Assembly: GCA_021432655.1 (NCBI GenBank)
Contig: MU271531.1
Span: 13,120-49,099 of the forward strand
From: Atractiella rhizophila
Taxonomy: Eukaryota
Direction: 5' to 3'
DNA: 35,980 bases
In this document: positions 4,871 to 29,605 of the stretch, one piece after another
Position numbering within the stretch: the first letter of the stretch is position 1
Layout: every line of letters starts with the position of its first letter
Made by a program: the position numbers and the translations under genes
Notes under the pieces: model-generated
Database searches by the model: none
What the model was told of the DNA's origin: nothing
What the model saw: the letters and a program-made list of their open reading frames with translations, nothing else

Positions 4871-5081
4871 ATCTTACATGTTTCATATGATATGCTTTAC
4901 AGTTCATGGCAGTGCTCCTACACATATATATAAATCAAGATGTAGTGGTGATGACCCTAGAGTATTCTCTTAGGTTTATCGCTATTATAGGTTAGTCACT
5001 TCATGTCATGATATCTCTTAGGTTTATCTCTACTACAGACACATCGTTCATCAGCGACTGTACATATTGTCAACTCAAACA
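4871..5081 (+). mobile_element. Old degenerate LTR copy, same family as 5203-5554 and 21331-21770; left boundary uncertain
   Basis: Aligns by eye to the LTR 3' half (cttacatgtttcat...tatatata...agagtattctcttaggtttatc...tgtcaactcaaaca versus tgtcagccctaaca) with many transitions. Confidence 0.75.
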
Positions 5082-5202
5082 GAAGAATATTTTCTCATAT
5101 CTTCAAAATCAAATTTTAAGAAGTTAGCAAAATGTCGGAAGTCTGGGGAGATATGGAGACATATGATTTGCTATCAATGGAGGAATATATCCAATTAGAA
5201 AC

Positions 5203-5554
5203 TGTTAGGGCTGACACTATGTGCGGTCGCCAATGGGCGATGCGTCTGTAGTGGAGATAAACCTAAGGGCATGATATGACATGAAGACTAACCTGTAGTG
5301 GAGATAAACCTAAGAGAATACTCTAAGGTCACCTCGGATCTATATATACAAGCGGAATAACACTGCCACAAAGTGTAGAGGAGAGCAGATGAAACATGCA
5401 AGAGAACTGAAAGGGGAAGCGACAGTGGGATTATGCGGAGTTAATAAGAGGAGGATAGGCACAATTGGGCTAAGTGGTGATGTAGGTGCAAATAGGCGAC
5501 GGGAGACGCAGAGTGGCGAACGGATGCTGATTTGCGTAAGATGCAAACCTGACA
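5203..5554 (-). mobile_element. 3' LTR (352 bp) of the Ty3/gypsy element
   Basis: Minus strand reads TGTCAGG...CCTAACA (TG..CA ends, short inverted termini), contains TATATA, lies just downstream of a purine tract; homologous solo copy at 21331-21770. Confidence 0.88.
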
Positions 5555-5780: not shown

Positions 5781-6140
5781 ACTCACCAACAAACCGGTCG
5801 CCGATCTGCCTGTTGAGGGGCAGATCGGCGCCTCGCCTAGACCTATGTTCAACAATGTGACTAGGGATTCACCCAGCGAGGCGTGTAGAGGAGTAGGACT
5901 TCTTAAAGTGAGGGGGAGGGGACCTCGTGATTGAGGGCAATTTTCGTAAATGCGACATTGGTGATGGTGCGAGAATGCAATGAGCATTCGTCTTTGACGG
6001 GCGACGCATGGACTCACCAACAACCAAGTCGCCGACTTGCCCGTTGAGGAGCAAGTCGGCACCTTGGCTTGGCCTAAGTATCAAAGACTAGGATTTCACC
6101 CGGCAAGGCATATAGGGGTGTTGGATCCCTTAAAGTGAGG
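5781..6140 (-). repeat. Two diverged ~130-bp direct repeats (5781-5913, 6012-6140) in the gypsy 3' UTR with conserved stem-loops
   Basis: Both run actcaccaacaa...cttaaagtgagg on +. Stems cgccgatctgcc/ggcagatcggcg (5799-5830) and gccgacttgc/gcaagtcggc (6031-6060). Confidence 0.85.
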
Positions 6141-7965
6141 AAGACCCTCTAGTGCTTTTTCGTCGAAGGTTACGAGAACGCGCATTTGGGCGATTTTTGG
6201 CGGAGTTTGGTATGGAATCGGGACGAACCGCGAGAAGGTGTGCAGTGTGATAGTCTCTTATAGCATCCTGCGAATTTTCTAGATCTGCGATGTTGATCCA
6301 CTCGTCCTCAGATGGTGAATACCCTTTGTATCGAACGCGATATTTGAAAACTCTATTTCGGGTACCGAACCATTTTCCATCGACAATTTTCTCCACTTCC
6401 CATTCTTCAATTCCATTCACCAATTCCGGAGGTGGTTTGGGCAACTGGACTCTGCCCGGGATGTCGTCTTCGTTGACTTTTCGTATTAGACCTACATGGA
6501 ACACTGGATGTATCTTCCATGAGGATGGCAACTCGAGTTTAAGGTTGAGGGGACCCAAAACTTGTGAAACGCGAAAAGGGCCATGCCATTTGTCCTCTAA
6601 CTTTTTGACAGGTCTCGTCAATTTGATGTTTTTCGCGCTCAACCAGACGAAATCGCCGACGTGATATTCGGGCGCCGGTGCGCGTTTTCTGTCATAATGT
6701 TTTGCCATAAGATCTGCTGCTTGCTCGAGTGCCGCTTGTGCTTCCCGGTCGGCGATTTGCATCTTTTCGACGAATTGCGCCGCCGCGGGAACGTCCTCGT
6801 CGGAGATGGGTTCAAAGGCCATGCGGGGATGTTGGCTGCAATCGAGCGAAAATGGAGTTACGCCCGTCGCCGAACTGACGCGATTGTTGAGGGCAAATTC
6901 TGTGTTGGGAAGTCCTTCCACCCAATTATCTTGAAGGTGGTTGCAGAAAATGCGCAAATATTGTTCAACCTCTTGGTTCATGCGTTCAGTCTGACCATCA
7001 CTTTGTGGGTGATAGGCTGTCGATGGTGAACCTTTGATATCTAATAGGCGAAAAAGCGCGGATGTGAATTTGGACACAAACTCTTTGCCTCGATCGAAAA
7101 TTGCAACATCGAAAAGTCCATGTAACTTCCATATGTGATTGCAAAAAAGTCTTGCAAGGCCTTCTGCATCCATCATCGAATGGGTGGGCATGAGATGGGT
7201 GCGTTTTGAGAGTCTGTCTACGATGACGAAAATCGTGTCAAACCCCAGATTCTGGGAGTGATCCAACCAAGTCCATGCTGACAATTTGCCATCGGCGCTT
7301 GGGAATGTCATTTGGTTGCAAAAACCCGACAGGTGGGGAAGGAAAGTTTTTCGTTCTGTGGCAAGTGTGGCAGGCGTTGACATAGCGGCGAACGTAATGC
7401 GCCAAACCTGGCCGCCAGTAGTACCTTTTTACGAGAGCCATTGTCGATTTTACTCCTGGATGACCGGCGATTTGCGAATCGTGCAGGTCTTGCAAAATCG
7501 AGAGGCGAATTTCGTCGTCGCGGGGAATGTAGAGTTCTCCGCGAAAATAGACAGCGCCATCGACTTCTTGCCACTCCCGTTGGCGAATTGCGTGGACTGG
7601 TTCGTCTAGGATCTCTCTCAAGGCCTTGACTACTTGTTCTTCCCGTTCGGGTACCTTTTTCATGCGTTCCAGTATACTGAACTCTGACATTTGTCTTGTG
7701 AGCGCAACCGCGCTCCCAGTCGCGTTGATCGTGATACGATCCGTGTTGAAAAAACATTCCGGGAGCAATGCTACATTGAAATTGTCGCAAGTCGCCGGTT
7801 TGTGATCTGACCGCCGACTGAGCGCATCTGGTTTTGCGGAGTTTCGTCCAGGACGGCGTAAAAGCGTGAAGTTGAAAGTTGAAGTTCAGTGATCCACCGC
7901 GCTTGTCGCCAATTTAACTTTTGTGGCATCCTGAAATATTCAAGGTTTTTGTGGTCTGTCAAGAT
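6130..7965 (-). pseudogene. Ty3/gypsy (chromovirus) pol remnant: RNase H C-terminus, integrase zinc finger and DDE core, chromodomain; frameshifted, 5'-truncated
   Basis: ILTDHKNLEYF..QKLNWRQARW (RNase H); LHDSQIAGHPG..CHTC (HHCC); SMD, FDRG, TAYHPQSDGQTERMNQ (DDE); WHGPFRV..HPVFHV (GPY/F); EEWEVEKIV..YRVRYKGYSPSEDEW (chromodomain). Confidence 0.95.
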
Positions 7966-8555
7966 CAGAAGAAGGACACATGGAGAATCGTCCGTGGTGC
8001 GAGTAGAATAGAACATTTCGCCATGACCCAGGATAGGTACTTTGATTCCGTTGCCAACTTCGAGGGTCTCATTACCCGATTCCTCTCTGAAATTGTGGAT
8101 GAGTTCCCTCCGAAACTCCGTGGGCTTAGAACAGCCTGAGTCGAGACACCTTTGATTTGAGCCGCGAAGAGAGCGATGTCGCCGAGGACAGACAAGGCAG
8201 GAGATAGAGACATGACTTTGGGAATGGGGATCTCATGTCGGACGGCTAAGTCGAGCAAAATGAGGGCATGAGCAGGCTCTGCACCATTGATATCAAGAGA
8301 ATGTGCATTGATATCCCCATTCTAACCCGGCTGATGTCACCAACGTAGCAGGCGTAGTGAGAGACTTCTTGTGTCCCAAAGCTGCCACTGACATCCTGAT
8401 GCCTATCACCCCAATTGGCATTGGTAGGGAGCACGTTCAATCCTGAGAGAAAGGAAGGAGGCATAGAAACTGTGATAGGCGTGTCCGAAGAAACAGCAAC
8501 ATTGGCGGCGAGAGATAAGGAAGCCTTCTTAGCACGGAATTGTTCGAGTTTTTCG
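7966..8555 (-). pseudogene. Ty1/copia gag C-terminal tail and aspartic protease (continuation of 19889-20975)
   Basis: My minus-strand translation from 8148: CLDSGCSKPT...LEVGNGIKVPILGHGEMF, the copia protease pattern DSG...VGNG..I.G.G. Upstream KLEQFRAKK continues gag ...FQLHPE in frame once 8556-19888 and one TSD are removed. Confidence 0.85.
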
Positions 8556-8671: not shown

Positions 8672-10827
8672 TAGTCTCGGGCCAGACTCCACGCGCTGCT
8701 GGATATTTGGAAAAAAGCTACTTTGCAAAAAATCACGTGCGTACACTACATTGGTAATATGAACTACTACGTCATTACAATTTAAGAAATCAACGTATCC
8801 AAAATCCAGCAGCGCTGGAGTCTGGAACCACTCGTGTGGGGAACCTGTCGAAATCCGAACCGACCATTTTTGAACGCAAATATCTCAACCACAACAGCTG
8901 GTACGGCTTTGGAGTAAGCGTGAATCCGGATAGTTTTAGCAAAATATTGGTTTGCGCGCTTTTTTGGTGAGTTTTCGTCCTTTTTTCAGCTTTGGATGTA
9001 ACCATCTTTGCAGGTCTATATCTCGTTACATACGCGGTATTGAGCTCCATGGAGCCTCAGGGAGGTCCAATGTGACCTCCTTTATCCATTCCAGGCGGCG
9101 GAACACGCAGAGATCGCATACCCACCGAGAACGACAACCATCCACCTCACCCTACCAGCGTCCTGCCAACCCCTCTTCTCGGTCGCTAGCCTCTCAAACT
9201 GCGCTGAGAAGATAAGAAAGGGCTCCCAGACTCTCTGTGAGTGTTTTCAGACCTTTAGCGCCTTCCTATCCCGATCCATCGCTCCTCTCCGGTACCGTCC
9301 TTTCACCTCCCTCCCTTTCCTCTCTCTCCATCTCGTGAAGCTTGCTAATGATCTAAAACGGCTCTAGTGACACTTACGAACGAAATCCACGTGGATCGCC
9401 AGCTCCTACAAGCACTTATGAGGAACGACACCCCTGCCTTTCTCCGCCTCTCTTGCCTTAGATGTCACTCTAAAGAGCGCCAAAGCGCTTACAAGAAGGT
9501 AGAACGGTGTACAAGGACACGTTGATGTTTTTATAAGATGATATGAGCATGTGTGGGTGGAATGATATCAAAGAGGGCGTAGGGCATTCTATTTCATGAC
9601 TCATGCTGCAGATGGACTCAACTGGTAAGTATTGAAGTTTTCAAGCTGCCAGCAGTTTCTGCATTGCAATATGTCCAAGTGTAGCTACATGAATAAATAC
9701 CTCCTGCAATCAAGATTTTACACCTGTAAGCTGACCTGAAAGGCACGCGCGAACGCATTCCGACATGCAGAATGAGAACCTGAAAAAAACTCAATACCGC
9801 CCTGACTTGTCTCCTCTTCTACGTCTAATGCTCCCACGTGGCAACGATGGATGGTATAAAGGCGGAGATGTGGAGGCACACGGGGAGGGGCAGATTGGTT
9901 CTGAGTGGTACGGTGGGTTGGTGGATCTGGCGGAGTTAGTGATATTCTTTCATAAGGAGCATGACTGCCTTCGTACTTCGTTCTAGGTGTCTCGCAGGCT
10001 CTGTAGAACGTTTGGAGGCGTCGTCCAAGCGAGGGAGAGACAAATTGCACTTGGAAAGGCGGAGGAACGACCGTTCCTCATAAGTGCTTGTAGGAGCTGG
10101 CGATCCACGTGGATTTCGTTCGTAAGTGTCACTAGAGCCGTTTTAGATCATTAGCAAGCTTCACGAGATGGAGAGAGAGGAAAGGGAGGGAGGTGAAAGG
10201 ACGGTACCGGAGAGGAGCGATGGATCGGGATAGGAAGGCGCTAAAGGTCTGAAAACACTCACAGAGAGTCTGGGAGCCCTTTCTTATCTTCTCAGCGCAG
10301 TTTGAGAGGCTAGCGACCGAGAAGAGGGGTTGGCAGGACGCTGGTAGGGTGAGGTGGATGGTTGTCGTTCTCGGTGGGTATGCGATCTCTGCGTGTTCCG
10401 CCGCCTGGAATGGATAAAGGAGGTCACATTGGACCTCCCTGAGGCTCCATGGAGCTCAATACCGCGTATGTAACGAGATATAGACCTGCAAAGATGGTTA
10501 CATCCAAAGCTGAAAAAAGGACGAAAACTCACCAAAAAAGCGCGCAAACCAATATTTTGCTAAAACTATCCGGATTCACGCTTACTCCAAAGCCGTACCA
10601 GCTGTTGTGGTTGAGATATTTGCGTTCAAAAATGGTCGGTTCGGATTTCGACAGGTTCCCCACACGAGTGGTTCCAGACTCCAGCGCTGCTGGATTTTGG
10701 ATACGTTGATTTCTTAAATTGTAATGACGTAGTAGTTCATATTACCAATGTAGTGTATGCACGTGATTTTTTGCAAAGTAGCTTTTTTCCAAATATCCAG
10801 CAGCGCGTGGAGTCTGGCCCGAGACTA
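8672..10827. mobile_element. 2,156-bp non-autonomous foldback DNA transposon with 756-bp TIRs and 9-bp TSD (AcademH-like; MULE is the alternative)
   Basis: Arms 8672-9427 and 10072-10827 are gap-free inverted repeats (one mismatch noticed, 8741/10758). TSD AAGGAAAGC at 8663-8671 and 10828-10836. Termini 5'-TAGTCTCGGGCCAGAC. No transposase in the 644-bp core. Confidence 0.93.
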
Positions 10828-11063
10828 AAGGAAAGCATGGTACGCAGATTGCATAGGTACCAAGCAGCATACATTTTTTTTCTGTTTTGCCATGAAGTAT
10901 AGAGCATTAAGACTTCGATCATATAAACAATCTTAATTGGGTCATATACCATTCAAATATTCACTTTGTTTTAGAATGAGGATTATGGAGCACTTTGGCA
11001 TTACTTAGCATCATTTAAAGATGATCGGGAAGGCTGAAAGTCCAAAGTATATTTGTAGACCCG

Positions 11064-11107
11064 TTCGGAGGGTTTCAGATCACCTGACGGAACAAAGACC
11101 CCTACGA
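11064..11107 (+). repeat. Left subterminal inverted repeat of the large element (partner 19605-19648)
   Basis: ttcggagggtttcagatcacctgacggaacaaagacccctacga matches the reverse complement of 19605-19648 at 38/44. Confidence 0.9.
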
Positions 11108-11186
11108 ATTAGCACTCAGTTTTTGTTCAAGGAAATGAAAATGGACAGTAATCATCGCAAAGCTGTATTGTAGCACTGGAAATTAT

Positions 11187-12039: not shown

Positions 12040-14653
12040 AGTGACTCATCCTTCTTTTGCAGTTGCAAGGGCAACTGTATCCTTTCATCCTCCTTCTGCT
12101 CGTCTTCGTGATTTCCTTCATCCTGGATGCCTGAACCAGAACCGGAAGCCTTTGGAGAAGAAAGTGAATGTTCAGGTTTGGATATAGCTTTTAATCCCAA
12201 GAGCATGCAGGTTTGCTGGCATTGATGTAAATGTTCAAAGCTTAAGATAGCTTCTGGTGAATATTGTAAGCCCCTATGCCTATCTGAATATGTTAGAATG
12301 ATTATACGGAAAGAAAATTCTACCCATTGAGGTTATCATCACAAATCACTAACACATCTGTAATGTGTGGCCAGACCCCTGTATCAATTGTATTAGATGT
12401 CAATAGCGATTAAGATCAAGTTGGCATTACCCTGCAAGTCACAAATTAACATTGACCCCTTTGTAATCTCATATACGGCGTGTTGTAAACCTAGTAAGAC
12501 GTCTATCCTTTTAAAATCTTCGGTCACCTTTTCCGATGGCTCAATCACAATCTCGATGTTTGAACTGGCATCAATCCACTTTGTCCACTTCTCTCCCATC
12601 TTGATAGCACTCTCTAGGTTTGGTTCAAGAAGCATATATTGAATTGCCAAGCCTTCCTTTTTTCCTTTCCCTCTAGCTGCCAGTGGGACCAGTCGTAAGC
12701 AGCGGCAATAGGTGTGACAAGTTGTGGGAGGAGCTGTGGAAAGTTATGCTGCCGGTCTGCTTGTACTCGTAATTTACGAGAAAGTGACTGGTTGATGATT
12801 TGTTCGAACAGACTATGGGTCCAACAAAAAGCTTGAATATCGTGGAAGCAATAACCTCATTGCTTTCGGCGACTGTCAACATACTTCCATGAAACCGTTA
12901 TCCCTTTCCCCTTTTTCCCCACTCCAACAAGCTTAATCCATTTCTTAATTACTACCTCTTTCTGATCCAAACATCCATCTTCCTGCAACCAACCTGTCAA
13001 AGCCACCCGACTAGCTCCTCGCCCTACTCCACGCTGCGAGATAACCAATCGTGCTGTTGTAAAGGAAAACATAGATAGAAAGGGTGAAGTTGAGTCTTGG
13101 CGCAATAGTTCTTCTAACGTTGATGGTTGGATCGGAATAATTCTGATCATGACGCCCCCATGAGATAAACAAGGTGGCAGGAGATCATCAGCAGCCAAAG
13201 CTGATCCCTGTTTACGCTCTTCAAATTGGAGTAAGGTCGGAGAAAGCAGAGGTAGTGCATCGGAATCGGAATGATCAACTAGCTGAGGGGGGGGAGACGT
13301 TGATTTAGGTAGAGAGCTTGATGGAGTAGAATGATCTGGAAGGGGTTTGAAATTATTCATAACCTTCCTTGGCGGACTCTGAGTGTCTGGAGAGATAGAA
13401 AGCTGTGAGAACCCCCTCTTCCTCCTTCCGTCTCCAATCCCATCTCTAATCTCATCCTCATTATTTCCAACCATGTTCCTATCATTGTCAAATAGATAGT
13501 CTTCATTGCGACTAGTGTCCTCCTTTGCTGCATGCTCGAATAGAAGTAACCAATTGTCGGCAGAGATTAGCATGACCGCACGATATTTGTTCTTAAGAAC
13601 CAACTTCTTCATTTTGGCCTTGGTATTTGTCTTCGCTTCTATGGATGAAGGGAAACTGAATCCAGCTTTCTTCAGAATATATCGAAATGGTGTGGCATTG
13701 TTTGGAGGAAGTGACAAATGAACACCTTGAGCGCTTAAAAGATGAACACATGATTCGTGAAGAGGTAGAATGTGTCCTGCTAGGTGGGAAATCTTCAAAT
13801 TGAGACTTTGAAGGCAAAGTTTGATAAGTTCCTCGTATGTTGTATCTGCTCGAACTGGATCGATTACAGCCCATATATCCATTGGTTCATTGGTAGAGCT
13901 GTTGATGGGTAAATCTGGGTGAGGCTTGCGGCTTGCGGTGTTCTTGACGACAATACCATGGGTTGGGTTCCATGTATCGTAAAAAAGCTGGACAAAGAGA
14001 GACTCTGTAACATCTTTCCACGTTCTAGGGCATCCTGACTGATCAAGCATGGATATCTTTTTAGCGAGTGCAACCTTCTTGCCATCATATTGACTATAAG
14101 CCAAATTGGTAACACTTGACTGATAGAGTACAGATCCTCCTGGAACAGTGGCTTGCTGGATTCCTAATATTACCTCATTATTACAGAATACTTCTATTTG
14201 CTTTCATGTGGAACATACCTGGAATAGAATTTTGTCGGGACTTCTGGGTTTGGCTTGATAGCTGCTTGATGTCGAACTTGGATTCTACAGATCCTGCGGA
14301 GCATGAACACAGACGCTAACAATATTTAAATATCACCCACCTCTTCCTCTTGTATTTGGTAGTACCGTTAAATTGCCAACATCTACAGGTTCCTTGTTTC
14401 TTCTTTTCCACTCATCAAAACAAGCCTGACACCAATGTCGTATCTCCTCTTGTGATCCAGCTCCGCCTTTGACTGCGACCAGATCTGAGAGGCGATATAA
14501 ATCTTTTGGCTTCCAGCAGCTACTTTTCTGACATTGATGATATGTTTGTCCTGGAAGAACGGTAAGTTCACCGACATCTACAGGGTTCATCATTGGCCCA
14601 ATCTTGACTGATGGATTGTCACAAAAATTTGAGGCTAGATAGAGAGACTTCAA
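12040..14653 (-). pseudogene. Alpha-kinase (eEF2K/MHCK-type atypical kinase) with Cys-rich N-terminal region; spliced, at least one frameshift near 12880-12920
   Basis: GVGRGASRVA (G-loop), EVVIKKW (Lys), YMLLEP, LQHAVYEITKGSMLICDLQG (H.Y...G..L.CDLQG signature), FEHLHQCQQTCMLLGL (C-terminal zinc site H.C..C..LGL at 12193-12239). Start uncertain. Confidence 0.85.
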
Positions 14654-15653: not shown

Positions 15654-17630
15654 TCAACCTTTCAGAATAAAATTTCCTTGCAGGTTCAGAAAGGGGCTTG
15701 GTAGCTGTTTTCTGGTGTATTTTTTTTGTTTAGAAGGATCAGGTGTAGCACCTTGACAGATCTGATGGGTCAGTGTGGCGAGTCTGGAGATGGTGTCTAA
15801 GTTTTTATCATTGAGCTCAAGATGAGCTAACACGTTATAGTCGTCAGATAAGGGTTCTGCCTTCCTTCCAAGAACCTGAGATTTGGCCTCGCTTGTTGTG
15901 AACAATAAAGGACATGGATGAAAACAAACTTCTTGAACAGCGGCCGTCCAAAAGATATCCTCTTTCTTATGGGCCAGTTTCCAGAAAGCTGTGATCAAAC
16001 GCCATCTTGGAAGCTCTCTGCTTAACCAGTCCTCAAAATCACTAGCCTTTTTTACAGGTTGACCAGTATCGGTACGATCATGATTTCGTAGGATGGGATA
16101 GACAAACCCTTGTAATAAGGTGTGGATTAAAAGAGTGATAAAGGTTTGGCGGAAACGACCGTCTTCTATTGCTTTGGACCCTGAGGTAGGTTTCCAATTG
16201 GTTGGAGACAAACAATCCCTACAGTCTTTGAATGGCGAACTGAAGCAGGAAAGATTGAGAAAAGATCCAAAGTCGAGGGGGGTAGATCTCTTGGCTGCTG
16301 AGTCTGATGGCACTTGTCAAGGTGACCAAGCATTTGACGCCCATAGTCTAAATTACTGAGAAAGTGCGGGATCTAACACCTCTGCTGTATCGTTCTCACT
16401 TCCAAGGACAGAAAAGACCCAACCAGCCATGGCAGGAGCTTGAATCGATGTCCAGTGATGTATTCTTCGTCTGAAGGAGAGTTGGACATATTTTGCAAAG
16501 CGAAAGAGGATGTGAGCCATAGATTCAACAGTCTGTGCTACTTCAATCTTTGTAGCCAAATTAAAAAGATGGATAGGGGACTTGAGGTACTGATTGAGTG
16601 GGACTGCTCATCAGAGAGTTCTATTGAGAGCAAGAGATTTGAGATGGCAGGAATATTGTCCAATCTGATCAGTGACCGGTCCATTGACAGGAGGCCTTCC
16701 AAATCTTTCAGCTTTCCGCTCTTGAGTGATTTTCCAGCTGCATAGTATCCTTTGACAACTTCAAGCTCCTTGTGAAGGCAATTAAGACTAAGATTCTTAG
16801 TAAAGAAATCCATATTCACGGGATTCTTGATGCGGATAGGGACATTGGTTCGTGGTCGAGAGAGAGATGCAGCTTTTCTGTTTGCCTTTGTTGATGTTTT
16901 TACTCTTTTTCATCCCTGATATAGCTATGTTGATATAAGCAAAATTTCCATACCTTTTTAAGCTAGCGAAAGATGTTTGCTTACATCTTGATCTAAATCA
17001 GCCGAGTCTTCAGCTGCTTCTCCCAAGGTGTTTGTCTTCCACTATGACCGGATTAGTTGATACTCTGAAGAAATTACAAAATATGGTACCTTGTTACGCT
17101 GACCTGTAAAGTGATTATGAACATGCTGGAGAATATATTTAGGCTGAGAGATACAAATAAAAGTGGCAGAGGCCTACTGAAGAACCTTTTACAGACATCT
17201 GGCCCTGAAAGAGCACCTCACGACAATGAGAATCAGCCATTAGGATTCACTGGAAATCTGGGGGTAGTTGATGTTGAATTCAGGAGAGATAGGTACGAGC
17301 AGCTTATTGTTCAACATCCGTTTGCCTAATATATGGTCAACAATATGTAAATCCAGGTGTTAAGGCTTACAATTCCTCAATACCAACCCATAAACCTGTT
17401 TTAGCCCACGTTTTAGCTGAAACTGCATACCATAAATAGGTTATAACTTCAGATATAAGAATCTGTCTTACCAATGACTGCCTCTCATAAAACCTCCAAT
17501 CACTGAACTCCAAGCCATTCGCCTCATCCACATCCAATTCTTCATGACCAATCCCTTCGTTACAGTGTAACAGTGAGATAACCTTTGGGGAAAGCTTTCC
17601 AATTTGGCTAGGCCGAATGTTGAGTGAAAT
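15654..17630 (-). pseudogene. Disrupted coding region collinear with the TET/JBP gene (C-terminal extension or separate unknown gene)
   Basis: Same-strand ORF pieces 16538-16819, 16353-16559 and 15654-16313 linked by frameshifts or stops, with intron-like segments in 16900-17600. No family recognised. Confidence 0.5.
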
Positions 17631-19545
17631 TTATCTTCCACCACAAACAGTTTCTGAGCACTTCAGCACTTCTTCACGTCCCACAATATCTTGTGGGTCT
17701 AACTTAAGTCTTCCAATACTCTGTCGCTCGCCATTCTCTCTAGGAAGAAAAGTAATAGCATCTGTAATTTTGTTGAAATCAAACTGGATTTGATAGATCG
17801 GATTGAAGTAATGTGTGGACTTGTGTAACTGAAGTAGACGTTCATGAAGGATGGAGGTAATATGGTGTGAGGGATCACTCATGACAAGAAGACCATGTTG
17901 TGTCCAGTTCTTGTCTTTTCTTTCATCTGGAGCGGCCTCCCATGTGTGAACACGGTTTGGAATAAAACTTGATGTTGGAAAACGCTGGTGGATAGTTGTA
18001 GTTCCTTCACTAGCCTCATCCTCTTCATCTGAGTCTATGTTGGGCATTCTGAACTTTGTCTTGTGCTTTGAAGGTAAGGACTTTGTAGTGAGCTCTGTGT
18101 TGATATCTGCGGGCTGGAGAGAGAGAGGTATCTGACAGTGGATTGCCAATTCAGTTGCGTAGTTGATGTAACCAATACGAACGGCATCAGCAGGGAGTTG
18201 CTCAAAGGTTCTTTGATCCATGTCGCTTGTCGAGTCCACCTCCATCTCACCATTTGCCAAGCTCTCTTGCAAGTCCCTCAAGCTACATAACCTGCTCCCT
18301 CCATGCGGTTTCTTCCACTCAGGACCATAATGACGAAATCATCTCCAATTTCACAATATTCGCCTGAATGGACGAGACCGAATCTTGCTCCATGAATGCC
18401 TAACCAATCCAATAATTCATCAGCTCAAAGCCTTGCTTGAGCAGAAGGACATAAATTTGAAGACAAAAGGACCTACCACAGCTATGATTCAAAAAGAACA
18501 ATGCTACCGTTCTTCCCAAGATTGCGTCCTTCATATCCACATGTAGTTGGCCGTACTTTGCTAACCAGGTGCTCAAATCCTTATCTTCATGGAGAGTTGA
18601 TTTTGACCGAAGACCGTGTTGGAAAGAAGAGGTTGCTTTTGACCATAGGGATATCTCAGCAACATTGGGTTGAAGCGTGGTGAAAGTATAGTTCTTGCTA
18701 CTGCCGTATGTAAAGGGTGGACAAGTTTCGCACGCGCTTTGAGGCATTCAATATATGAGGGTCTCTCCGCCATTTCTAACACCTATCCATTGTCTCTCGT
18801 AAATGATTGGCTCATAGCGGTTTGATGATAAATAAATACATTTACCTGTATTGCAATTTCGGCATTCAACCTGTGAATCTCCTTCATGCGTTCCTCAAAC
18901 CCTTCCATCACCGCTCCTTCCTTGCCAGCTACACTAGCAGGAGGCTGCGCACGCGGCGCAATCAATCCATATGAGTGATTTACTTGTCTGCCTCCCATCG
19001 TATGCGCCCCACTAACTTTAGCTTGATGACCTAGACCTCCCTTCCAAATAGGTATCGCACCACCCAGCCTGTCTTCCAAAGCAGAATCTACGACAGGAAT
19101 ACCATCTGGTCCAAACTTTTGCCCAAAAGTAAAGGGTTTTAACTTCTCCGCCATCTTAATGACAGAAGCTCCTCTCTCTCCCATAGATTCCATTGAGCAG
19201 CGGCTGTGAGCATAAGAGATCAAGGATACTTCAGAGCAGTTGTCCTTGTTTTCTGAAAAAGTAAGAATCCCAAAGTCAATAGCTTGCATGTTGGGGATGA
19301 CTGTGCAGCGTGCACTGTAGAACTTAGGCCGGATGGCCAGCAGCAGCCAAAAGCTGAGCTTTGAGGAGCGTTTTCCCCTCTTCACTCAGATCATGGGAGA
19401 TGATCCGTACTTGATGATACGCCAGCTTGTCGGCTTTGGCGAAGATTTTGAAGGCCGGGTGCTTCTGGGCTTGAACGATGGATCCTGTTTGGAGCTGAGG
19501 GTACCAGGGTTTCTGACATAGTTCTGACGGAACTGGCCGCTAAAT
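17631..19545 (-). pseudogene. TET/JBP-family 2-oxoglutarate/Fe(II) dioxygenase, fungal transposon-associated type; about 3 frameshifts
   Basis: With introns 18783-18845 and 18400-18476 removed: LKARAKLVHP/FTYGSSKNYTFTTLQPNVA, KYGQLHVDMKD (HxD at 18543-18535), GARFGLV, VLSGR/PHGGS (distal His 18305-18303), AVRIGYINYA (2OG-binding Arg 18179-18177). Frameshifts at about 19328, 18715 and 18310. Start uncertain. Confidence 0.75.
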
Positions 19546-19604
19546 GAAGGGCGGGCTTTATGACTTTGGTTGGTTCCTTGTTCCTTTGTTAGAGGTGCAA
19601 CAAG

Positions 19605-19648
19605 TCGTAGGGGTCTTTGCTCCGTCATGTGACTTACAACCCTCCGAA
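19605..19648 (-). repeat. Right subterminal inverted repeat of the large element
   Basis: 38/44 inverted match to 11064-11107. Confidence 0.9.
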
Positions 19649-19847
19649 GGGTCCTACGAATAAAGTTCCAACTTTGAGCCTTCTGATTGCAATGATTGGC
19701 TGGAAGGTTGGGCACCCGGCTTTGTGCGGATGTAAACGGTGGACGGCGTTAGGAGGATCAAACCATTGCACACCAAGTGCACCAAATTAGTGCAGCATAC
19801 GGAATTGAGACCCGAAGTTTGTGTCAGCCACAGTACCTTTCACAAAA

Positions 19848-19888
19848 AAACTAGCTCAAAGTTGAGCTGAAGGCTCTCGCCAACCGTA
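19848..19888 (-). repeat. Right terminal inverted repeat of the large element (begins TACGG on minus strand)
   Basis: Inverted match to 8556-8595, followed on + by the TSD TTTTCG. Confidence 0.85.
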
Positions 19889-20975
19889 TTTTCGGGATGG
19901 AGTTGGAAACATTCAGCTTTCTTGTGTCCTTTCTTTTTGCAGTGATCACAAGTCCTACTGAATCTGGAACTAGCCTCCACGAAACCACAACGACTGGGAT
20001 GAACATTGTTGATACTCCCACCAGTCCCATCAGATCGTTGCATAAGAAACGCTCTGTCTCCATCTTGAGCAAGAGATTCCCTTCCCACGATCCCGCTAAT
20101 TTCTTCAACGATGGTGTCAGGGGAGATGTGCTCGATTTTGATAGGGGTTCCGGGATGTAAAAGTTCGTGTCGTTCCTGCAGAACCTTGAATGATGTCTCC
20201 CATTTGATGCTGAGAGACTCAGGAATCATCGAAAGTAGATGTAAGGAGATAATCTTGTCAGGTCCTGTAATCTTGCCGGCATATCGTTCGATCTCTACCC
20301 ACGATTGTCGAACAGAGTTGGCCCAATCCACATACGAGGACGAGGAGATGGGTTGGGAGATAGTGGAAAGGAAAGCTCGCCATGCTGTTTTAGCTTGAAG
20401 GGTACCTTCAGCCGTGCATTTGGACTGAAGAAGCTTCCAGATCATATGTGCGGTATTCTCCTCGTCACTCCATTTCAACTCTTTCGCCTTAATAACTTCT
20501 TTCAAAGCATTGTCAATCAAAGCCTTTAAGAATGCACTGGCAGCCCAATCCCCTTTCAGCCAGGCAGAATTCTCCTTGCTGAAAAGAATAGCCTGAGACG
20601 GTCCAGCCGCCTTGTAAAGCTCCCTAACTGGTCGCACCATTAGGACTTCCCCTTTGGCGTTCTCCACAATATATCCCCAAAGCATCATCGTCTTCAAGCA
20701 TTCTTTCGCCTTTTCTGACCATGACTACCAATTCGCTCGAGTGAGTTTCTCCAAAATCTTGATATTGTCTGGAGGCATGATGGGCACTTCGTCGTCGATT
20801 TCGATGGGAAGATAGAAGAGTTGTCGCATGTGAAGAAAGGAGGTGGTGAGCTGAGCAGATCGGCCGTAGATAGCGTGGGAATGCTTGGTTCTTCGATGTT
20901 GAGACCTTGGAGGGACTCCAAACATCTGGAAGAGATGGAGGAGGTTGACGGTGATCTTGGTTGCTCCTGATTCAC
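19889..20975 (-). pseudogene. Ty1/copia gag (UBN2-type) with CCHC zinc knuckle; premature TAG at 20725-20727
   Basis: KLTRANW*SWSEKAKECLKTMMLWGYI...W..GD..A...TAHMIWKLL is the copia gag pattern; CDHCKKKGHKKAEC is the knuckle; lies downstream of a copia-type PBS. Confidence 0.88.
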
Positions 20976-21120
20976 ATCCTACGCGACATACATCGAATAG
21001 ATGAGATGTACGAGATTTATAGTCGCTCTGGACTCCAGAAGATACGTCGTCCGATCAGGAAATAACAATGAAAAAGATCGATTTGCCACCTGAAAGAGAG
21101 ATGCCTCAGATTCGAAGGTT

Positions 21121-21133: not shown

Positions 21134-21804
21134 TCATAGAATCTGGATTCTCCAATCGTTCACGATGGTGGAAGACGATCAGCAATGCAAAATACTATGG
21201 AGGAGGAGACAAACCTGGATTTCCCAATCGTTCACGATGGTGGAAGACGATGGGGAATCTAGTGAACGAAGAGGAGGTATATATGAGCGGACGGCATTGG
21301 CTAAGTGTGGGAAGATATGAGATGTGAGACTCTCAGGTTTGCATCTTACGCAAATCGGCGCCCATTCGTTGGATTGCATCTCCTATCGCCCATTTGTGTT
21401 CCCCCCGAATGGGCGCCTGTTCGCCCGTTTGCATTCTATACAAATCTGCGAACTGCCGCCATTCTGCGTCTTCCATCGCCACTTAGCTCATTTGTGCCTA
21501 TTCTCCTCTTCTCTTATTAATTCCACGTAATCCCACTGTCACTTCCCCCTTTTAGTTCTCTTACATGTTTCATCTACTCTCCTCTACACTCTGTGGCAGT
21601 GGTATTCCGCTTGTATATATAGATCGGAGAGTAGTGGAGGTGACCTTAGAGTATTTCTCTTAGGTTTATCTCCACTACAGGTTAGTCTTCATGTCATATC
21701 ATGCACTTAGGTTTATCTCCACTACAGAGGCATTGCCCATCGGCGACCGCACATAGTGTCAGCCCTAACAGAGACATAACTAGAACGAAGTGAAGAGACC
21801 AACA
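21134..21804 (-). mobile_element. 5' LTR of the copia element (about 226 bp after removing the inserted solo LTR)
   Basis: Minus strand starts TGTTGG at 21804, has TATATA, an internal direct repeat ccaatcgttcacgatggtggaagacgat (about 21153 and 21224) and abuts the PBS. 3' end reads GA rather than CA; no second LTR to confirm boundaries. Confidence 0.6.
21331..21770 (+). mobile_element. Gypsy solo LTR (440 bp) with 5-bp TSD GAGAC
   Basis: TCTCAGGTTTGCATC...GCCCTAACA, homologous to 5203-5554 in opposite orientation; GAGAC at 21326-21330 and 21771-21775. Confidence 0.92.
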
Positions 21805-22671
21805 ACCACCAGATGGGAAAGCCCTGTGAAAGATCATAATCCAACAGTGGTTCCACTGTCTCTAGGAGGGGTAGTCTGGAGTCCAGCAATTGTAAAATTC
21901 GGTCGTAATAAGATATACTGAGCAGTACTAGTGAGAAAGGATAATAAGGCGAAAATGGAGACAGTGCAGACCGGCAAAACGTATAAGGTTTGCTGAGCGG
22001 CGATTCGTGTGAGAAAGGGAAAGCGGGGGGATAGTGCGGGCATAAGCAAAGCGGCGATGGGTAAGCACGTGATCCTATGACGTGGCAAAGTAGGTCACAT
22101 GATTTCAGATGGTGCATTTCAGTAATGCGTAGGGGCAAGCCTGACAGATAGGAAGAATCCTAGGTGACTTTCTTCTACAATGTATGCTTCCCAGTGTGGT
22201 AGGAAGAATCCTAGTCTCAACATCCTGGACAAGCTGGTCAAAGAGGTCAGTACAAACATCAAAAAGTGGCTGATAAGAGCAGTCTGCAGCTCTTGAGCAA
22301 CAGTGTTCCCTATGTGGTCAAACATTCTGTTTAGCATGCAAGAGATTCCCCACTTCTACCATCCCCTTTACTCATTTGGTACTTGGTATGAGAAGGCTCA
22401 CTGCGTCAATGCCAAATGTAACAGCCCCTCCATCTATTAAGATACTCTGCATCGTACCGTTGTGAACACCTTCAACTATCCATCAATATTGCAATATTGC
22501 ATCAATCCCACACTGGTGGAACGTACACGACGAACCAAAGGCGAACGCCGAACACGTCGCATTCGCAAAAATTTCTGCCACTTTCTCACCAACTCACGCG
22601 TCCTTTGAGATCGTTCCTACACCAGTAATAGTTAGTAATAGTCAGATTAATCTTATCACGGGTGCATAGAT

Positions 22672-24105
22672 ATGTCCGGCTCAGCCTCCTCTTCAAAATC
22701 GATATCTTTCTTCCCTGCCCAGTCATGGGTCCACTTCGTCGCAGGCGGGTGAGCCTCTCGTTGCTTTGCACCATTTCAGATTCCAGATCACTTACCATCT
22801 GTGTTGTGTCGCAGGACGGGTGGAATGTGCGGAGCCATAGCCACTGCTCCTTTTGATTTGGTAAAGACGCGGTTACAGAGCGATTTGTATGATGGGAGTG
22901 GAGGAAAGAAGGATTTGAAGGGAAAGGGGAAGGAGGTTGTTGGTCCAAGTCGGAGTGGAATCAGGAGGGCCTGGGTGCATTTTAGGGAGACAGGAGGGAT
23001 TCTTAGGTACGCTTGTCTCCTCTACTTTGTCACTAGGTTGTTTTCAATTTTCAGCGCAAGGCCGTTACCAGAGGTTATCTAATCATAATGTTGACACTCT
23101 CGTTTCTGTCTTTCGCTTGATCTCTCTTTGAATGGGTTGGACTTATGAGGAGTTGTCCATAGGGATATCTACAAATACGAAGGACCGCGTGCACTCTTCA
23201 AAGGTTTGGGTCCAACATTAGTCGGCGTAGTGCCCGCCCGGTTCGTTCCCATCTCTCCTCTTACATTCTGCTGGACTCACGACAAGAAGGCAGTTCGATA
23301 AACTTCTTCACATACGGGAACGGCAAACAAATGTATGCACATTACCTCAACGACGGCAAAGAGAATCCGGCGATTCACCTCCTCGCTGGATTCACGGCTG
23401 GCCTTGCGACCGCTACATTCACAAACCCGATATGGGTGGTGAAGACGCGACTTCAGTTGGAGAATTCCCAGCGAGAGCCGTCCAGCGCTAAACCATCGAC
23501 GTCACATGCTTCTTCCTCATCAACAGCTTCGACGTCCTCACGTCACGTCTCTTCGACCTCGTCGATAAGAACAGCAAACGCTTACTCTACAGCAGCCATC
23601 CCCCAAAAAACAACCTCTGTAATCGTCATCCGTCAGATCTTGAAAAATGAAGGTATCAAAGGGTACTATCGCGGTCTGTCAGCTTCGTATCTTGGCTGTG
23701 CGGAGGGAACGCTGCAGTGGACACTTTATGAGCAGTTTAAGCGATTGGGGAGGAGGGATGGAAAGGAAGTGGGCACCATACAGCAGATGCTGGCTAGTGG
23801 AGGGGCGAAGCTTATCGCCACTGCTATTACTTATCCTCATGAGGTGCGTGTTCTCTAACATGCTCTGGAATGCTGATCATGATGTTGATTCCTAATAGGT
23901 TGTCCGCACCCGACTCCGTCAGGCTCCACCGGCCAATGGGGAATTGAAGTATAAGGGATTGTGGCAAACTTTCCGCGTGATAGCCATGGAAGAGGGTGTA
24001 GTGGCTTTCTATGGGGGGATGAGCGCGCATCTCATGAGGGTGATACCAAATGCTGTCGTCATGTTTTACGTCTATGAAGGCGCGCTGAAATTGTTTCAAA
24101 AGTGA
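22672..24105 (+). CDS. RIM2: Mitochondrial pyrimidine nucleotide carrier (SLC25A33/36-like), copy 1, spliced
   Basis: [59 protein letters not shown]: three carrier signatures; stop TGA 24103-24105. Confidence 0.9.
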
Positions 24106-24590
24106 TGGTGAGTCTGTCAGCGTCATTTTTTTTGGTGTGACCAAATGAGCTGATGATCAGAAATGGGTAGAATTGTGTCGCGGTTATCATTATTTATCTT
24201 ACTCCCACTCCCTACGCAACCGTACGCATGCCCGATAGATCGCAATTCACGACTCTACCTATCCCTGCTTGCTCTTTACTATTAGCTTACCTAAGTAAAT
24301 ACCCCGTATCGTCCATCAGATTTTGCAAATGGATGGATTAATACCATGAAATCATTCGACCTCTCCCCCTTCTCCTCAAGGGACCATGTTTTCAAAAGTA
24401 CAAAGTTGAAGCATCAAGGAAGCACAGAAGCCAATTACCAACAAAAGAAGTACAAAGCTGAACTAAATCCCCGAAAAAGTAAAGATTGGTCGAGTAAGCG
24501 TAGATTCTCGATCAACGTCGGGTAACAGTATAAAAAAACAGCGAGCACTCACGTTCCTCCTCCATAGGCTTAGAGACCTTTTTGACCAGC

Positions 24591-25794
<1,204 letters not shown>

Positions 25795-26000
25795 ACACCT
25801 TCAACTATCCATCAATATTGCAATATTGCATCAATCCCACACTGGTGGAACGTACACGACGAACCAAAGGCGAACGCCGAACACGTCGCATTCGCAAAAA
25901 TTTCTGCCACTTTCTCACCAACTCACGCGTCCTTTGAGATCGTTCCTACACCAGTAATAGTTAGTAATAGTCAGATTAATCTTATCACGGGTGCATAGAT

Positions 26001-27434
26001 ATGTCCGGCTCAGCCTCCTCTTCAAAATCGATATCTTTCTTCCCTGCCCAGTCATGGGTCCACTTCGTCGCAGGCGGGTGAGCCTCTCGTTGCTTTGCAC
26101 CATTTCAGATTCCAGATCACTTACCATCTGTGTTGTGTCGCAGGACGGGTGGAATGTGCGGAGCCATAGCCACTGCTCCTTTTGATTTGGTAAAGACGCG
26201 GTTACAGAGCGATTTGTATGATGGGAGTGGAGGAAAGAAGGATTTGAAGGGAAAGGGGAAGGAGGTTGTTGGTCCAAGTCGGAGTGGAATCAGGAGGGCC
26301 TGGGTGCATTTTAGGGAGACAGGAGGGATTCTTAGGTACGCTTGTCTCCTCTACTTTGTCACTAGGTTGTTTTCAATTTTCAGCGCAAGGCCGTTACCAG
26401 AGGTTATCTAATCATAATGTTGACACTCTCGTTTCTGTCTTTCGCTTGATCTCTCTTTGAATGGGTTGGACTTATGAGGAGTTGTCCATAGGGATATCTA
26501 CAAATACGAAGGACCGCGTGCACTCTTCAAAGGTTTGGGTCCAACATTAGTCGGCGTAGTGCCCGCCCGGTTCGTTCCCATCTCTCCTCTTACATTCTGC
26601 TGGACTCACGACAAGAAGGCAGTTCGATAAACTTCTTCACATACGGGAACGGCAAACAAATGTATGCACATTACCTCAACGACGGCAAAGAGAATCCGGC
26701 GATTCACCTCCTCGCTGGATTCACGGCTGGCCTTGCGACCGCTACATTCACAAACCCGATATGGGTGGTGAAGACGCGACTTCAGTTGGAGAATTCCCAG
26801 CGAGAGCCGTCCAGCGCTAAACCATCGACGTCACATGCTTCTTCCTCATCAACAGCTTCGACGTCCTCACGTCACGTCTCTTCGACCTCGTCGATAAGAA
26901 CAGCAAACGCTTACTCTACAGCAGCCATCCCCCAAAAAACAACCTCTGTAATCGTCATCCGTCAGATCTTGAAAAATGAAGGTATCAAAGGGTACTATCG
27001 CGGTCTGTCAGCTTCGTATCTTGGCTGTGCGGAGGGAACGCTGCAGTGGACACTTTATGAGCAGTTTAAGCGATTGGGGAGGAGGGATGGAAAGGAAGTG
27101 GGCACCATACAGCAGATGCTGGCTAGTGGAGGGGCGAAGCTTATCGCCACTGCTATTACTTATCCTCATGAGGTGCGTGTTCTCTAACATGCTCTGGAAT
27201 GCTGATCATGATGTTGATTCCTAATAGGTTGTCCGCACCCGACTCCGTCAGGCTCCACCGGCCAATGGGGAATTGAAGTATAAGGGATTGTGGCAAACTT
27301 TCCGCGTGATAGCCATGGAAGAGGGTGTAGTGGCTTTCTATGGGGGGATGAGCGCGCATCTCATGAGGGTGATACCAAATGCTGTCGTCATGTTTTACGT
27401 CTATGAAGGCGCGCTGAAATTGTTTCAAAAGTGA
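26001..27434 (+). CDS. RIM2: Mitochondrial pyrimidine nucleotide carrier, copy 2
   Basis: Appears identical to copy 1 at offset 3329. Confidence 0.9.
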
Positions 27435-27920
27435 TGGTGAGTCTGTCAGCGTCACTTTTTTGGTGTGACAAGATGAGGCTGATGATCAGCAATGGGTAGA
27501 ACTATTTCGCAGTTATCATTATTTATCTTACTCCCACTCCCTACGCAACCGTATGCATGCCCGATAGATCGCAATTCACGACTCTACCTATCCCTGCTGG
27601 CTCTTTAGTATTAGCTTACCTAAGTAAATACCCCGTATCGTCCAGCAGATTTTGCAAATGGATGGATTAATACCATGAAATCATTCGACCTCTCCCCGTT
27701 CTCCTCGAGGGACCATGTTTTCAAAAGTACAAAGTTGAAGCACCAAGGAAGCAGAAGCTAATTATTACCAACAAAAGAAGTACAAAGCTGAACTAAATCC
27801 CCGAAAAAGCAAAGATTGGTCGAGTAATCGTAGATTCTCGATCAACTTTGGGTAACAGTATCAAAAAAACAGCGAGCACTCACGTTCCTCCTCCATAGCT
27901 TAGAGAATTTTTTGACCAGC

Positions 27921-29605
27921 ATGGCACCAATGACACCCGTAGTGGACAATGCGGCTGGAGGCAGCTACTTCACCCTCCCGAATGGGCTGGGACTCAACAT
28001 GATGGACGACACGAGAATCAAAGGCTACCGTCCTCTGCTTCCACCCCAGATCCTCATGGAGGAATACCCTGCGAATATTAACGCTATTCAGACTGTAGCA
28101 AAAGGACGGAAGGGAGTTGAGGACATCTTGAATGGGAATGATGATCGGCTGTTCGTGGTATGTGGATCTCCTCAAGGTATTCTGCTAGGTTGCGGTGGTG
28201 AAGTGTCCAAACAGGTTGTTGGACCTTGTTCTGTGCACGATGTAAAAGCTGCTTTGGAATATGGTATGTTGCCGTGCTGTGCTTCAGTCCGACGCTGAGC
28301 ATTGCACCGTAGCCGAAAAATTACGACAATATGCTACAGAGGCGAGAGGCGATTTGCATATCCTGATGAGGTGAGATTCTCTCTCATTTCACCGTATATC
28401 AATACGCTAACAGGTTAACAGAGTATATTTCGAAAAGGTCCGCTTTTTTCTCTATGATCTGTGACAAATACCAATATCGAGCTGTTCAGCCGAGGACTAC
28501 AGTAGGATGGAAAGGGCTGATTAACGACCCTCACCTAGATGGATCTTTCAATATCAACACAGGTCTACGTTTAGCTCGAGCTCTCCTCCTAGAAATCGTG
28601 AGGACCATCTGTTGCAGCATCATTCCCATCTGAATTCGTGGATTCAGGTTTCAAGTGGTCTCCCCACCGCTTGTGAATTCCTCGATGTTATCAGCCCACA
28701 ATATACGGCCGATCTCGTCTCATGGGGCGCGATCGGAGCTCGAAGTCTGTTCTTTCTCAACCGTTTAACAATTATCTCATTCTTCTTTCCAGCAACGGAG
28801 TCACAAGTGCATCGGGAACTGGCTTCTGCCCTTTCAGCACCAGTAGGATTCAAGAACGGCACTGATGGATCCGTATCGATCGCTATTGATGCTATTCGGG
28901 CTGCGAGTTCCGAACACGTCTTCCTCTCTGTCACAAAACAGGGATTGAGCGCCATCTTTGAGACGACTGGCAATCCTTCAACGCATATCATCCTTCGAGG
29001 CAGTAATAGTGGACCAAACTATGAAAAGGAATTTGTGAAGAAGGTAGCTGGGGAGCTGGAAAAGGCCCAGCTTACCCCAAAAATCATGATCGGTTCGCCA
29101 TAGCTCCATTCCATGCCACAACATAACCTGAGAGATGGATACAGACTGCTCACATGGCAACTCTAAGAAGGACTACCGCAATCAGTCTATCGTCGCTGAG
29201 GATATCATGAAGCAACTCTCTGATCCTGATGGTTCTGGAACAGCGAAGAACATCGTTGGTGTGATGATCGAATCAAACCTCAATGAAGGCAAGCAGAGCA
29301 TCCCTCAGGAGGGACCTGAAGGATTGAAATATGGAGTGAGCGTGACTGATTGTAAGTTCTGCTCCGTTATGCGCTTTCTCAAACAAGCTCACACTTGTTT
29401 CTCTGTAGCATGCCTCTCCTGGGAAAAGACGGTCGAAGTTCTGGAGATGCTCCGCCAAGGAGTAAAGGCTCGACGCATGAACAGCAAGACGAACGGCTCC
29501 ATCTCTCCCAAGCGAAATAGCGCCTGGAGTGGCGCTCAGACCCCAGGACAAGCGCCGCCCACTGGCCAAAAGTTCAATTCATTGGACATGTTCAAGAGAC
29601 ATTAA
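27921..29605 (+). CDS. DAHP synthase class I-alpha (ARO3/ARO4 family), complete, spliced
   Basis: [94 protein letters not shown]3 versus ARO4 not resolved. Confidence 0.96.

Follow-up and report, generated by a model that had tools for sequence, protein, structure and literature searches.

A decayed copy of a repeat-borne gene for a probable TET/JBP-like dioxygenase in Atractiella rhizophila

When the motifs of a dioxygenase stand in order on one strand and in several reading frames, is the locus a split gene for a working enzyme or the remains of one? We asked this of the minus strand at positions 17631-19545 of a 35,980-nucleotide stretch of Atractiella rhizophila DNA (Pucciniomycotina; assembly GCA_021432655.1, contig MU271531.1, positions 13,120 to 49,099; hereafter the window), for which a preliminary description had proposed a cryptic enzyme of the TET/JBP kind, hidden by two introns and three frame shifts. 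The proposed role of TET/JBP genes carried by fungal DNA transposons is to remove the cytosine methylation by which the elements are silenced. Our analysis points, with a probability of roughly 0.7 for both parts taken together, to a repeat-borne gene of which this copy is dead and whose product would be a divergent TET/JBP-like dioxygenase.

Anatomy of the split gene and its repeat

The locus is not single in its genome. A word-seeded search (883 candidates) found three A. rhizophila proteins, on three different contigs, that share the sequence of the open reading frame (ORF) at 17631-18338, so that this sequence is repeated in the A. rhizophila genome. They are P0001 (966 residues, 100 % identity to the ORF), which is the public model of the same locus, P0002 (1872 residues, 77 % identity) and P0003 (447 residues), which comprises the C-terminal part only; the ORF resembles P0001 and P0002 far more closely than chance would allow. 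At least three copies exist of the ~4.1-kb repeat to which the locus belongs. In the window it lies at ~15803-19888, the shared unit being bounded there because read contigs of the other copies diverge from the window before 15803 and beyond 19865-19888.

Between ~19545 and 17631 the minus strand holds no ORF of more than 235 codons. The motif strings that had been quoted for the putative enzyme are spread over four ORFs in three frames of this strand, and no single ORF contains all four of NYTFTTLQPNVA, HVDMKD, PHGGS and VRIGYINY, which do occur in the order that had been given. By tblastn against the window, residues 810-1868 of P0002 match 19812-15909 of the minus strand collinearly, and the junctions were read from the window sequence guided by this alignment (Table 1). 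The two introns and the three shifts of the preliminary description (placed there at 19328, 18715 and 18310) are accordingly borne out by the sequence. Of these shifts, two are indeed 1-nt losses in short runs relative to the paralogous copies (18712-18714 and 18307-18308), and the third, at 19327, is a 1-nt gain, not a loss. That inventory was incomplete: one more early shift, the frame excursion at 17623-17660 and three stop codons farther downstream are not in it.

Both GT..AG introns would be spliceosomal in the intact form of the gene, judging from their borders. When intron 2 is removed, ..NHSCG is joined to IHGARF.. without a gap relative to P0002 and to the ..PDGWEGGRF.. of a Lentinula family described below. 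The segment at 18477-18717, which holds the HxD motif, is 94 % identical to the P0002 core and lies inside the hhalign match to that family.

Table 1. Parts of the dioxygenase-like gene and its defects, in coding order; frames and positions are those of the window.
Feature	Position	Strand	Details
Upstream part of repeat unit	19520-19888	minus	matches P0002 residues ~810-896; no open frame in window
Probable start ATG of TET-like gene	19517-19519	minus	MSE.. in window, MSEPWYPQ in P0002
Frame shift 0	19510-19512	minus	1-nt gain, coding-strand AAA for AA relative to paralogous copy; 3 codons past ATG
N-terminal coding segment, frame -2	19327-19509	minus	..PWYPQLQTGSIVQAQKHPAFKIF..AAAGHPA
Frame shift 1	19327-19328	minus	1-nt gain, CC for C relative to paralogue
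Coding segment, frame -3	18846-19325	minus	KFYSARC..GGAIPIWKGGLGHQ..AEIAIQ; N-terminal half of domain
Intron 1, 63 nt	18783-18845	minus	GTAAAT..ATAG; in phase; read-through gives stop; missing from P0002 protein
Coding segment, frame -3	18715-18782	minus	VLEMAERPSYIECLKARAKLVHP
Frame shift 2	18712-18714	minus	1-nt homopolymer loss, coding TTT for TTTT (plus-strand AAA for AAAA)
Coding segment, frame -2	18477-18717	minus	carries NYTFTTLQPNVA and HVDMKD
NYTFTTLQPNVA	18658-18693	minus	in ORF 18400-18747
HVDMKD (HxD motif)	18526-18543	minus	in ORF 18400-18747
Intron 2, 77 nt	18400-18476	minus	GTAGGT..TTAG; phase 1
Coding segment, frame -1	18309-18399	minus	IHGARFGLVHSGEYCEIGDDFVIMVLSGRN; GGRF strand region
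IHGARFGLV..	18371-18397	minus	
Frame shift 3	18307-18308	minus	1-nt loss, coding CC for CCC (plus-strand GG for GGG), directly before distal His codon
Coding segment, frame -3	17631-18308 (tblastn from 18314)	minus	PHGGS and VRIGYINY, then start of long C-terminal extension
PHGGS (distal His)	18294-18308	minus	in ORF 17631-18338
VRIGYINY (candidate 2-oxoglutarate-binding Arg)	18159-18182	minus	in ORF 17631-18338
Frame excursion	17623-17660	minus	2-nt and 1-nt deletion pair at 17659 and 17623
Decayed C-terminal extension	15909-17630	minus	P0002 residues ~1425-1868; further frame changes down to 15909
Stop codons	TAA 17304-17306; TGA 17280-17282; TGA 17247-17249	minus	P0002 has Q, R, R there

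Two further stretches touch this repeat. An 82-nt fragment on the plus strand (11029-11110), which is 79 % identical to 19602-19683 and inverted with respect to it, is a stray piece of the repeat's upstream part. Directly abutting the unit, a gag-like ORF at 19840-20724 (minus) stays open for 294 codons and has a CX2CX4HX4C knuckle, for which Pfam gave zf-CCHC only at E 0.42.

Defects of the window copy and the read contigs

We compared Logan contigs from two DNA runs of one sample (X1 and X2) with 15800-19900 of the window; the runs may share their sample with the assembly, so that the comparison tests the assembler and does not amount to a second, independent individual. Contig pieces identical to the window had a k-mer depth of ~60-133, and diverged pieces, with 4-24 differences, one of ~119-390. 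The latter are other copies of the repeat. They carry indels that restore the frame at 19513 (-1), 19327 (-1), 18711 (+A), 18306 (+G), 17659 (+CA) and 17623 (+G), and they have G in place of A at 17306, 17282 and 17249, where the TAA, TGA and TGA of the window thus become CAA, CGA and CGA.

Shift 0 is spanned by contigs that match the window exactly (19372-19626 in X1 and 19446-19626 in X2), as is shift 1 (19226-19389 in X2), and shift 3 is spanned by a contig (18240-18431 in X2) with 0 gaps and 1 other letter. Since window-matching contigs span them, three of the four early shifts are present in the reads. The preliminary description had considered sequencing errors and a read check at 18310, 18715 and 19328; the window versions of the first and the last are found in contigs, and an error is still conceivable at the site then placed at 18715. 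Among the contigs listed over 18711, all carry the extra A and the window version of that shift was not seen, which is a point on the side of an intact frame. These contigs also differ from the window at other sites and are therefore paralogues, and a base-calling error may be present at 18712, at that one site only. Stretches without a window-identical contig, such as 17133-17860 and 18711, are uninformative either way, because contigs drop the rarer variant.

Could the locus nevertheless be a working gene, with shifts that are homopolymer sequencing errors and an active TET/JBP enzyme after correct splicing? All four early shifts do fall in runs of two or three identical bases, the catalytic motifs are unmutated, and at 18712 only the frame-restoring version occurs among the listed read contigs. 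Such a gene is nonetheless very improbable, as contigs built independently from the reads repeat the window at 19510-12, 19327-8 and 18307-8, the downstream part has three nonsense codons and a 2-nt/1-nt deletion pair at places where the paralogues keep an open frame, and the annotators' model had to skip the HxD exon. With four 1-nt shifts in the first 400 codons, the indel pair at 17623/17659 and three nonsense codons, the locus is very probably a pseudogene. The proposals of a cryptic enzyme and of sequencing errors are thus not supported: three of the four early shifts recur in read contigs, the frame is broken again farther downstream by indels and premature stops, and the locus itself is a decayed member of a repeat. 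Since the window copy is dead, there is no enzyme to study here, and the value of the locus is that of a pointer to its paralogues, one of which may still be active.

The public gene model takes part of its sequence from the neighbouring gag-like ORF. P0001 is a chimera that joins this ORF (19843-20976) to pieces of the TET-like region, and it jumps from ..AEIAIQ (18846) to WKKPHGGS (18320), so that it omits the whole HxD exon and hides the catalytic part of the gene. It is conceivable that this 966-residue protein (gag-like, TET remnants without HxD, C-terminal extension) is expressed, non-catalytic and possibly domesticated, in that a gene model of this structure exists and the gag-like ORF 19840-20724 has an uninterrupted frame of 294 codons. 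We consider this hardly credible, since the model is stitched together from several frames, its many short 'introns' falling on the defects, and no domain was recognised in it at a meaningful level by Pfam.

Two other accounts of the defects were rejected. Programmed frameshifting is at odds with four shifts of both signs, with the nonsense codons and with paralogues that are open at the same places. A directional bias of the RIP (repeat-induced point mutation) kind does not fit the data either, transitions between the window and the other copies being about equal both ways (in X1, A>G 27 and T>C 24 versus G>A 31 and C>T 23).

Relationship of the core to TET/JBP proteins

To which family did the decayed gene belong? 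In a full HMMER search of 1.84 billion representatives, the P0002 core matched two proteins at E <= 0.001, the locus's own model and P0004 of Lentinula edodes, and no rust protein appeared at this threshold. The phmmer match to P0004 (E 4.4e-5, 33 % identity) runs from core residues 76-275 to residues 156-332 and begins within the coding segment 18846-19325. Among 1882 candidates, 14 relatives of P0004 were found, in Lentinula, Rhodocollybia, Collybiopsis and Cerrena. When the core was aligned by hhalign with the 14-sequence family alignment, the match had 95.3 % probability and E 2.3e-8 over 116 columns, with 34 % identity, and it paired FT..QLN, G.HxDxxD...GRT, GGRF.LV..G.Y.E and HGG[ST]. 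The paired strings are NYTFTTLQLNVA in the Atractiella core and NVCFTGVQLNIA in the Lentinula family, GQLHVDMKDAILGRT and GGVHIDKGDSNGGRT, HGGRFGLVHSGEYCEI and EGGRFHLVEFGLYIEL, and NGRNPHGGS and SGLRLHGGT. The core is hence homologous to a family of basidiomycete proteins, and its H/D/H align with the invariant or near-invariant H/D/H of that family. The triad itself is present, with HVD at 18535-18543 and the His of PHGGS at 18303-18305, 53 residues apart in P0002.

The family in turn leads towards TET/JBP. P0018 of Cerrena zonata reaches E 1.8e-6 against the Pfam family Tet_JBP (PF12851), in a match that covers profile positions 85-162 of 164, P0008 reaches E 0.09, and PF12851 matches were obtained in 2 of the 20 rows of alignment A1. 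In a protein atlas, the neighbours of P0004 residues 140-400 scored 0.95-0.96; 22 of the 30 best belong to PF12851 sets, with 206-210 of 256 features in common. On this transitive sequence evidence, the core probably belongs to the TET/JBP family.

Several results weigh against this reading. The score of P0018, 27.7 bits, is below the Pfam gathering cut-off of 34.9. PF12851, a TET/JBP profile of the kind with which the preliminary description had proposed a comparison, matched none of seven window ORF translations and none of the three Atractiella proteins P0001-P0003. Pfam as a whole gave nothing relevant for those ORFs and no family for the three proteins, nor, at E <= 0.1, for the 342-residue P0002 core. 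When the PDB was searched by sequence with the core, P0002, P0018 and the profiles A1 and A2, no TET chain was returned; the profile matches fell outside the dioxygenase core, chiefly on a C-terminal chromodomain. For the P0002 core, no atlas neighbour scores above 0.82, a noise-level value, and the names are of the hAT type instead of TET. MAFFT paired the family Arg with the R of GGSRL and not with that of VRIGY, so that the position of the 2-oxoglutarate-binding Arg is ambiguous. P0002 itself, which shows a 10-residue gap relative to the window exactly where one variant contig has a 1-nt deletion (19122), may be defective or the product of a repair by the gene caller, so that the existence of an intact copy is unproven. 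As to carriage by a transposon, Pfam found no transposase domain in P0002, the window showed no transposase homology and no match to the upstream 800 residues of P0002, and around 15.8-19.9 kb there are no terminal inverted repeats, only short pairs at chance level.

Further searches were likewise negative or gave little. A word-seeded protein search for shorter relatives of the core (3820 candidates) returned only P0001, PHROGs gave nothing for the core and an unnamed family, phrog_24024, for P0018 (6.1e-6) and P0004 (0.025), and NCBIfam gave nothing relevant. A metagenome locus scan produced 197 pattern matches with 0 confirmed, and tblastn of P0018 against a phage collection gave no match. 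The AlphaFold2 model of the core, built from the 20-row alignment, had a mean pLDDT of 29.6.

These gaps leave room for another reading of the same decayed repeat-borne gene, namely as a different Fe(II)/2-oxoglutarate oxygenase with a double-stranded beta-helix (prolyl-hydroxylase-like or AlkB-like) or as a mimic of the motif order. It would account for the lack of a direct Pfam or PDB match of the core and for the PF12851 scores of the related family, all sub-threshold, and the best atlas neighbour of P0004 is a cluster automatically named as a prolyl 4-hydroxylase-type 2-oxoglutarate dioxygenase, with no common Pfam family. We regard it as unlikely, since the PF12851 sets make up most of the atlas neighbours of P0004 at 0.95-0.96, Tet_JBP is the only Pfam signal in the dioxygenase region of the relatives and lies at the expected part of the profile, and the motif order, including TFTT and HxDxxD, is that of the PU-type domains in Table S1 of PMC12730594. 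The resemblance to fungal TET/JBP enzymes that the preliminary description had noted therefore stands as remote and transitive, most probably of the TET/JBP kind. Its statement that all catalytic residues are retained applies to the HxD and distal His motifs, which are unmutated, and is ambiguous for the Arg (VRIGY or GGSRL); the candidate in VRIGYINY lies 43 residues after the distal His and has Y at R+6, as in the family string RSVVVLY.

Read as a TET/JBP-like gene, the intact form of the repeat would encode ~975 residues, in which an extension of ~570 residues at the C-terminus comes after a divergent Fe(II)/2-oxoglutarate dioxygenase domain of the TET/JBP-like kind, and would contain at least two short spliceosomal introns. 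The Fe(II) ligands would be the His and the Asp of HVD together with the PHGGS His, and an Arg, probably the one in VRIGYINY, would hold 2-oxoglutarate. By analogy with transposon-borne fungal TET/JBP enzymes, the product would oxidise 5-methylcytosine on the element's own DNA and so escape methylation-based silencing. The window copy cannot yield this protein, for four 1-nt shifts fall between its probable ATG and the distal-His codon, and it also carries further indels and, downstream, three nonsense codons of the C>T kind.

Known transposon-borne enzymes and the surroundings of the locus

How does the Atractiella gene compare with known systems? The main text and Table S1 of PMC12730594 (Kojima 2025) describe TET/JBP genes on 11 DNA-transposon lineages in three fungal groups, for which escape from methylation-based silencing is the proposed role. 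The PU type occurs in rusts (Pucciniomycetes) on seven lineages including hAT7, the AG type includes CcTET, and the PE type has HxE instead of HxD, so that the Atractiella protein, in which HxD is present, is not of the PE type. Atractiella is not mentioned in that main text or table (0 occurrences), and our literature search found no paper combining 'Atractiella' and 'JBP'.

As characterised in the same source, the PU type is, like the Atractiella gene, multi-copy, repeat-borne and within Pucciniomycotina. The motif order of its Table S1 domains (GG..G.GWRK, TFTT, H.D(KGD), GG[PR]F, H.T, R.G.S.Q) is, compared by eye, the same in Atractiella: ..WGGKMWGIGWRK.. corresponds to ..LGGAIPSWKGGLGHQ.., ..HLTFTT.. 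to ..NYTFTT.., ..PHFDKGD.. (HIDKGD in some PU proteins) to ..LHVDMKD.., ..GGRFVFP.. to ..GGRFGLV.., ..KHCTLP.. to ..PHGGS.. and ..RLGLSLQI.. to ..VRIGYINY... As consensus forms, the first and the last of these motifs read GG..G.G..K and R.G.[SI].[QN]. There are also differences from the PU type. Atractiella belongs to another class, the Atractiellomycetes, its distance from TFTT to HxD is ~50 residues whereas that of the PU type is ~9, its distal His and candidate Arg are ~43 residues apart, it has a ~570-residue C-terminal extension, and the window copy is dead and without a transposase beside it.

CcTET of Coprinopsis cinerea and the AG-type TETs of Kyakuja/Zisupton, given as 5-methylcytosine and 6-methyladenine oxidases in PMC12730594, are likewise fungal, transposon-linked TET/JBP proteins with an HxD...H triad. 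At the residues assigned there to the handling of the two bases, CcTET has Gly at H+5 and Asp at H+11, whereas Atractiella has Asp and Thr in a naive register. The suggestion that the enzyme might also act on 6-methyladenine is therefore without support.

The only family found by sequence was that of the Omphalotaceae (P0004-P0017) together with P0018 of Cerrena zonata. It has FT..QLN, HxDxxD...GRT, GGRF.LV and HGG[ST] in common with the Atractiella core; in contrast to it, the family belongs to Agaricomycetes, many of its members end in a chromodomain, which Atractiella does not have, and shorter loops precede HxD and separate His from Arg. Its proteins are named only 'hypothetical', and all of their PF12851 matches are sub-threshold. 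Among P0004-P0017 the TET/JBP-like core is followed by a C-terminal chromodomain of the Swi6/HP1 type (E 2.6e-7 to a PDB chain) and comes with an N-terminal domain of ~115 residues, for which AlphaFold gave a pLDDT of 70-84.

A tentative suggestion, to which we give somewhat less than an even chance, is that A. rhizophila harbours an undescribed repeat-borne TET/JBP lineage, which would be marked by the long loop before HxD, the insert of ~43 residues between His and Arg, the ~570-residue extension and a possible linkage to hAT. If so, it would extend TET-carrying transposons to a second class of Pucciniomycotina and link the PU type of rusts to the unclassified, chromodomain-bearing family of the Omphalotaceae. 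Should the anti-silencing role hold, such genes would have existed in Atractiellomycetes too, beyond the three fungal groups surveyed, and TET/JBP genes would decay like other transposon cargo.

We infer carriage by a transposon from the structure of the paralogue. The P0002 model has 800 residues upstream of the TET-like part, which may be hAT-like, judging from their motifs and a noise-level atlas lead, and in which Pfam found no transposase domain. The window copy has lost whatever precedes the unit in the paralogue, whose gene model runs on into what may be a hAT-like transposase, as the gag-like ORF abuts the unit here.

The TET-like unit lies within a 16-kb repeat island, between an NLR-like gene and a duplicated block of carrier and DAHP-synthase exons; the island holds remnants of Ty3/Gypsy integrase, chromodomain and RNase H, the gag-like ORF and foldback-like repeats. 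The Ty3/Gypsy pol remnants, at 6133-8232 (minus), occupy several frames and comprise the zinc-binding and core parts of the integrase, an SH3 domain of the Tf2 type, a chromodomain and RNase H. Inverted repeated segments at 4952-5552 and 21333-21772 (117 nt at 97 %, 84 nt at 93 % and 64 nt at 78 %) bracket the ~16-kb island, the left one being internally palindromic; they could be two foldback or MITE-like copies or the ends of a large element. A perfect (100 %) inverted repeat of 756 nt, at 8672-9427 and 10072-10827 with a spacer of 644 nt, is an artefact of the assembly or else a palindrome or foldback of very recent origin. At 12396-12743 (minus) a fragment of an alpha-kinase domain was recognised (PF02816, E 5.5e-7), and the ORF beside it (12860-14203, 448 codons) gave no Pfam family.

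On one flank of the island, the NLR-like gene (1-4312, plus) has a NACHT/NB-ARC domain and many TPR_10/TPR_12 repeats, and in its DNA, at 1546-4126, a 120-nt unit occurs 20 times in tandem with 61-94 % identity; hypervariable tandem repeats are typical of fungal NLRs. On the other, a tandem duplication at 22321-28197, with a period of 3329-3330 nt and 95-100 % identity, contains a mitochondrial-carrier exon and DAHP-synthase exons.

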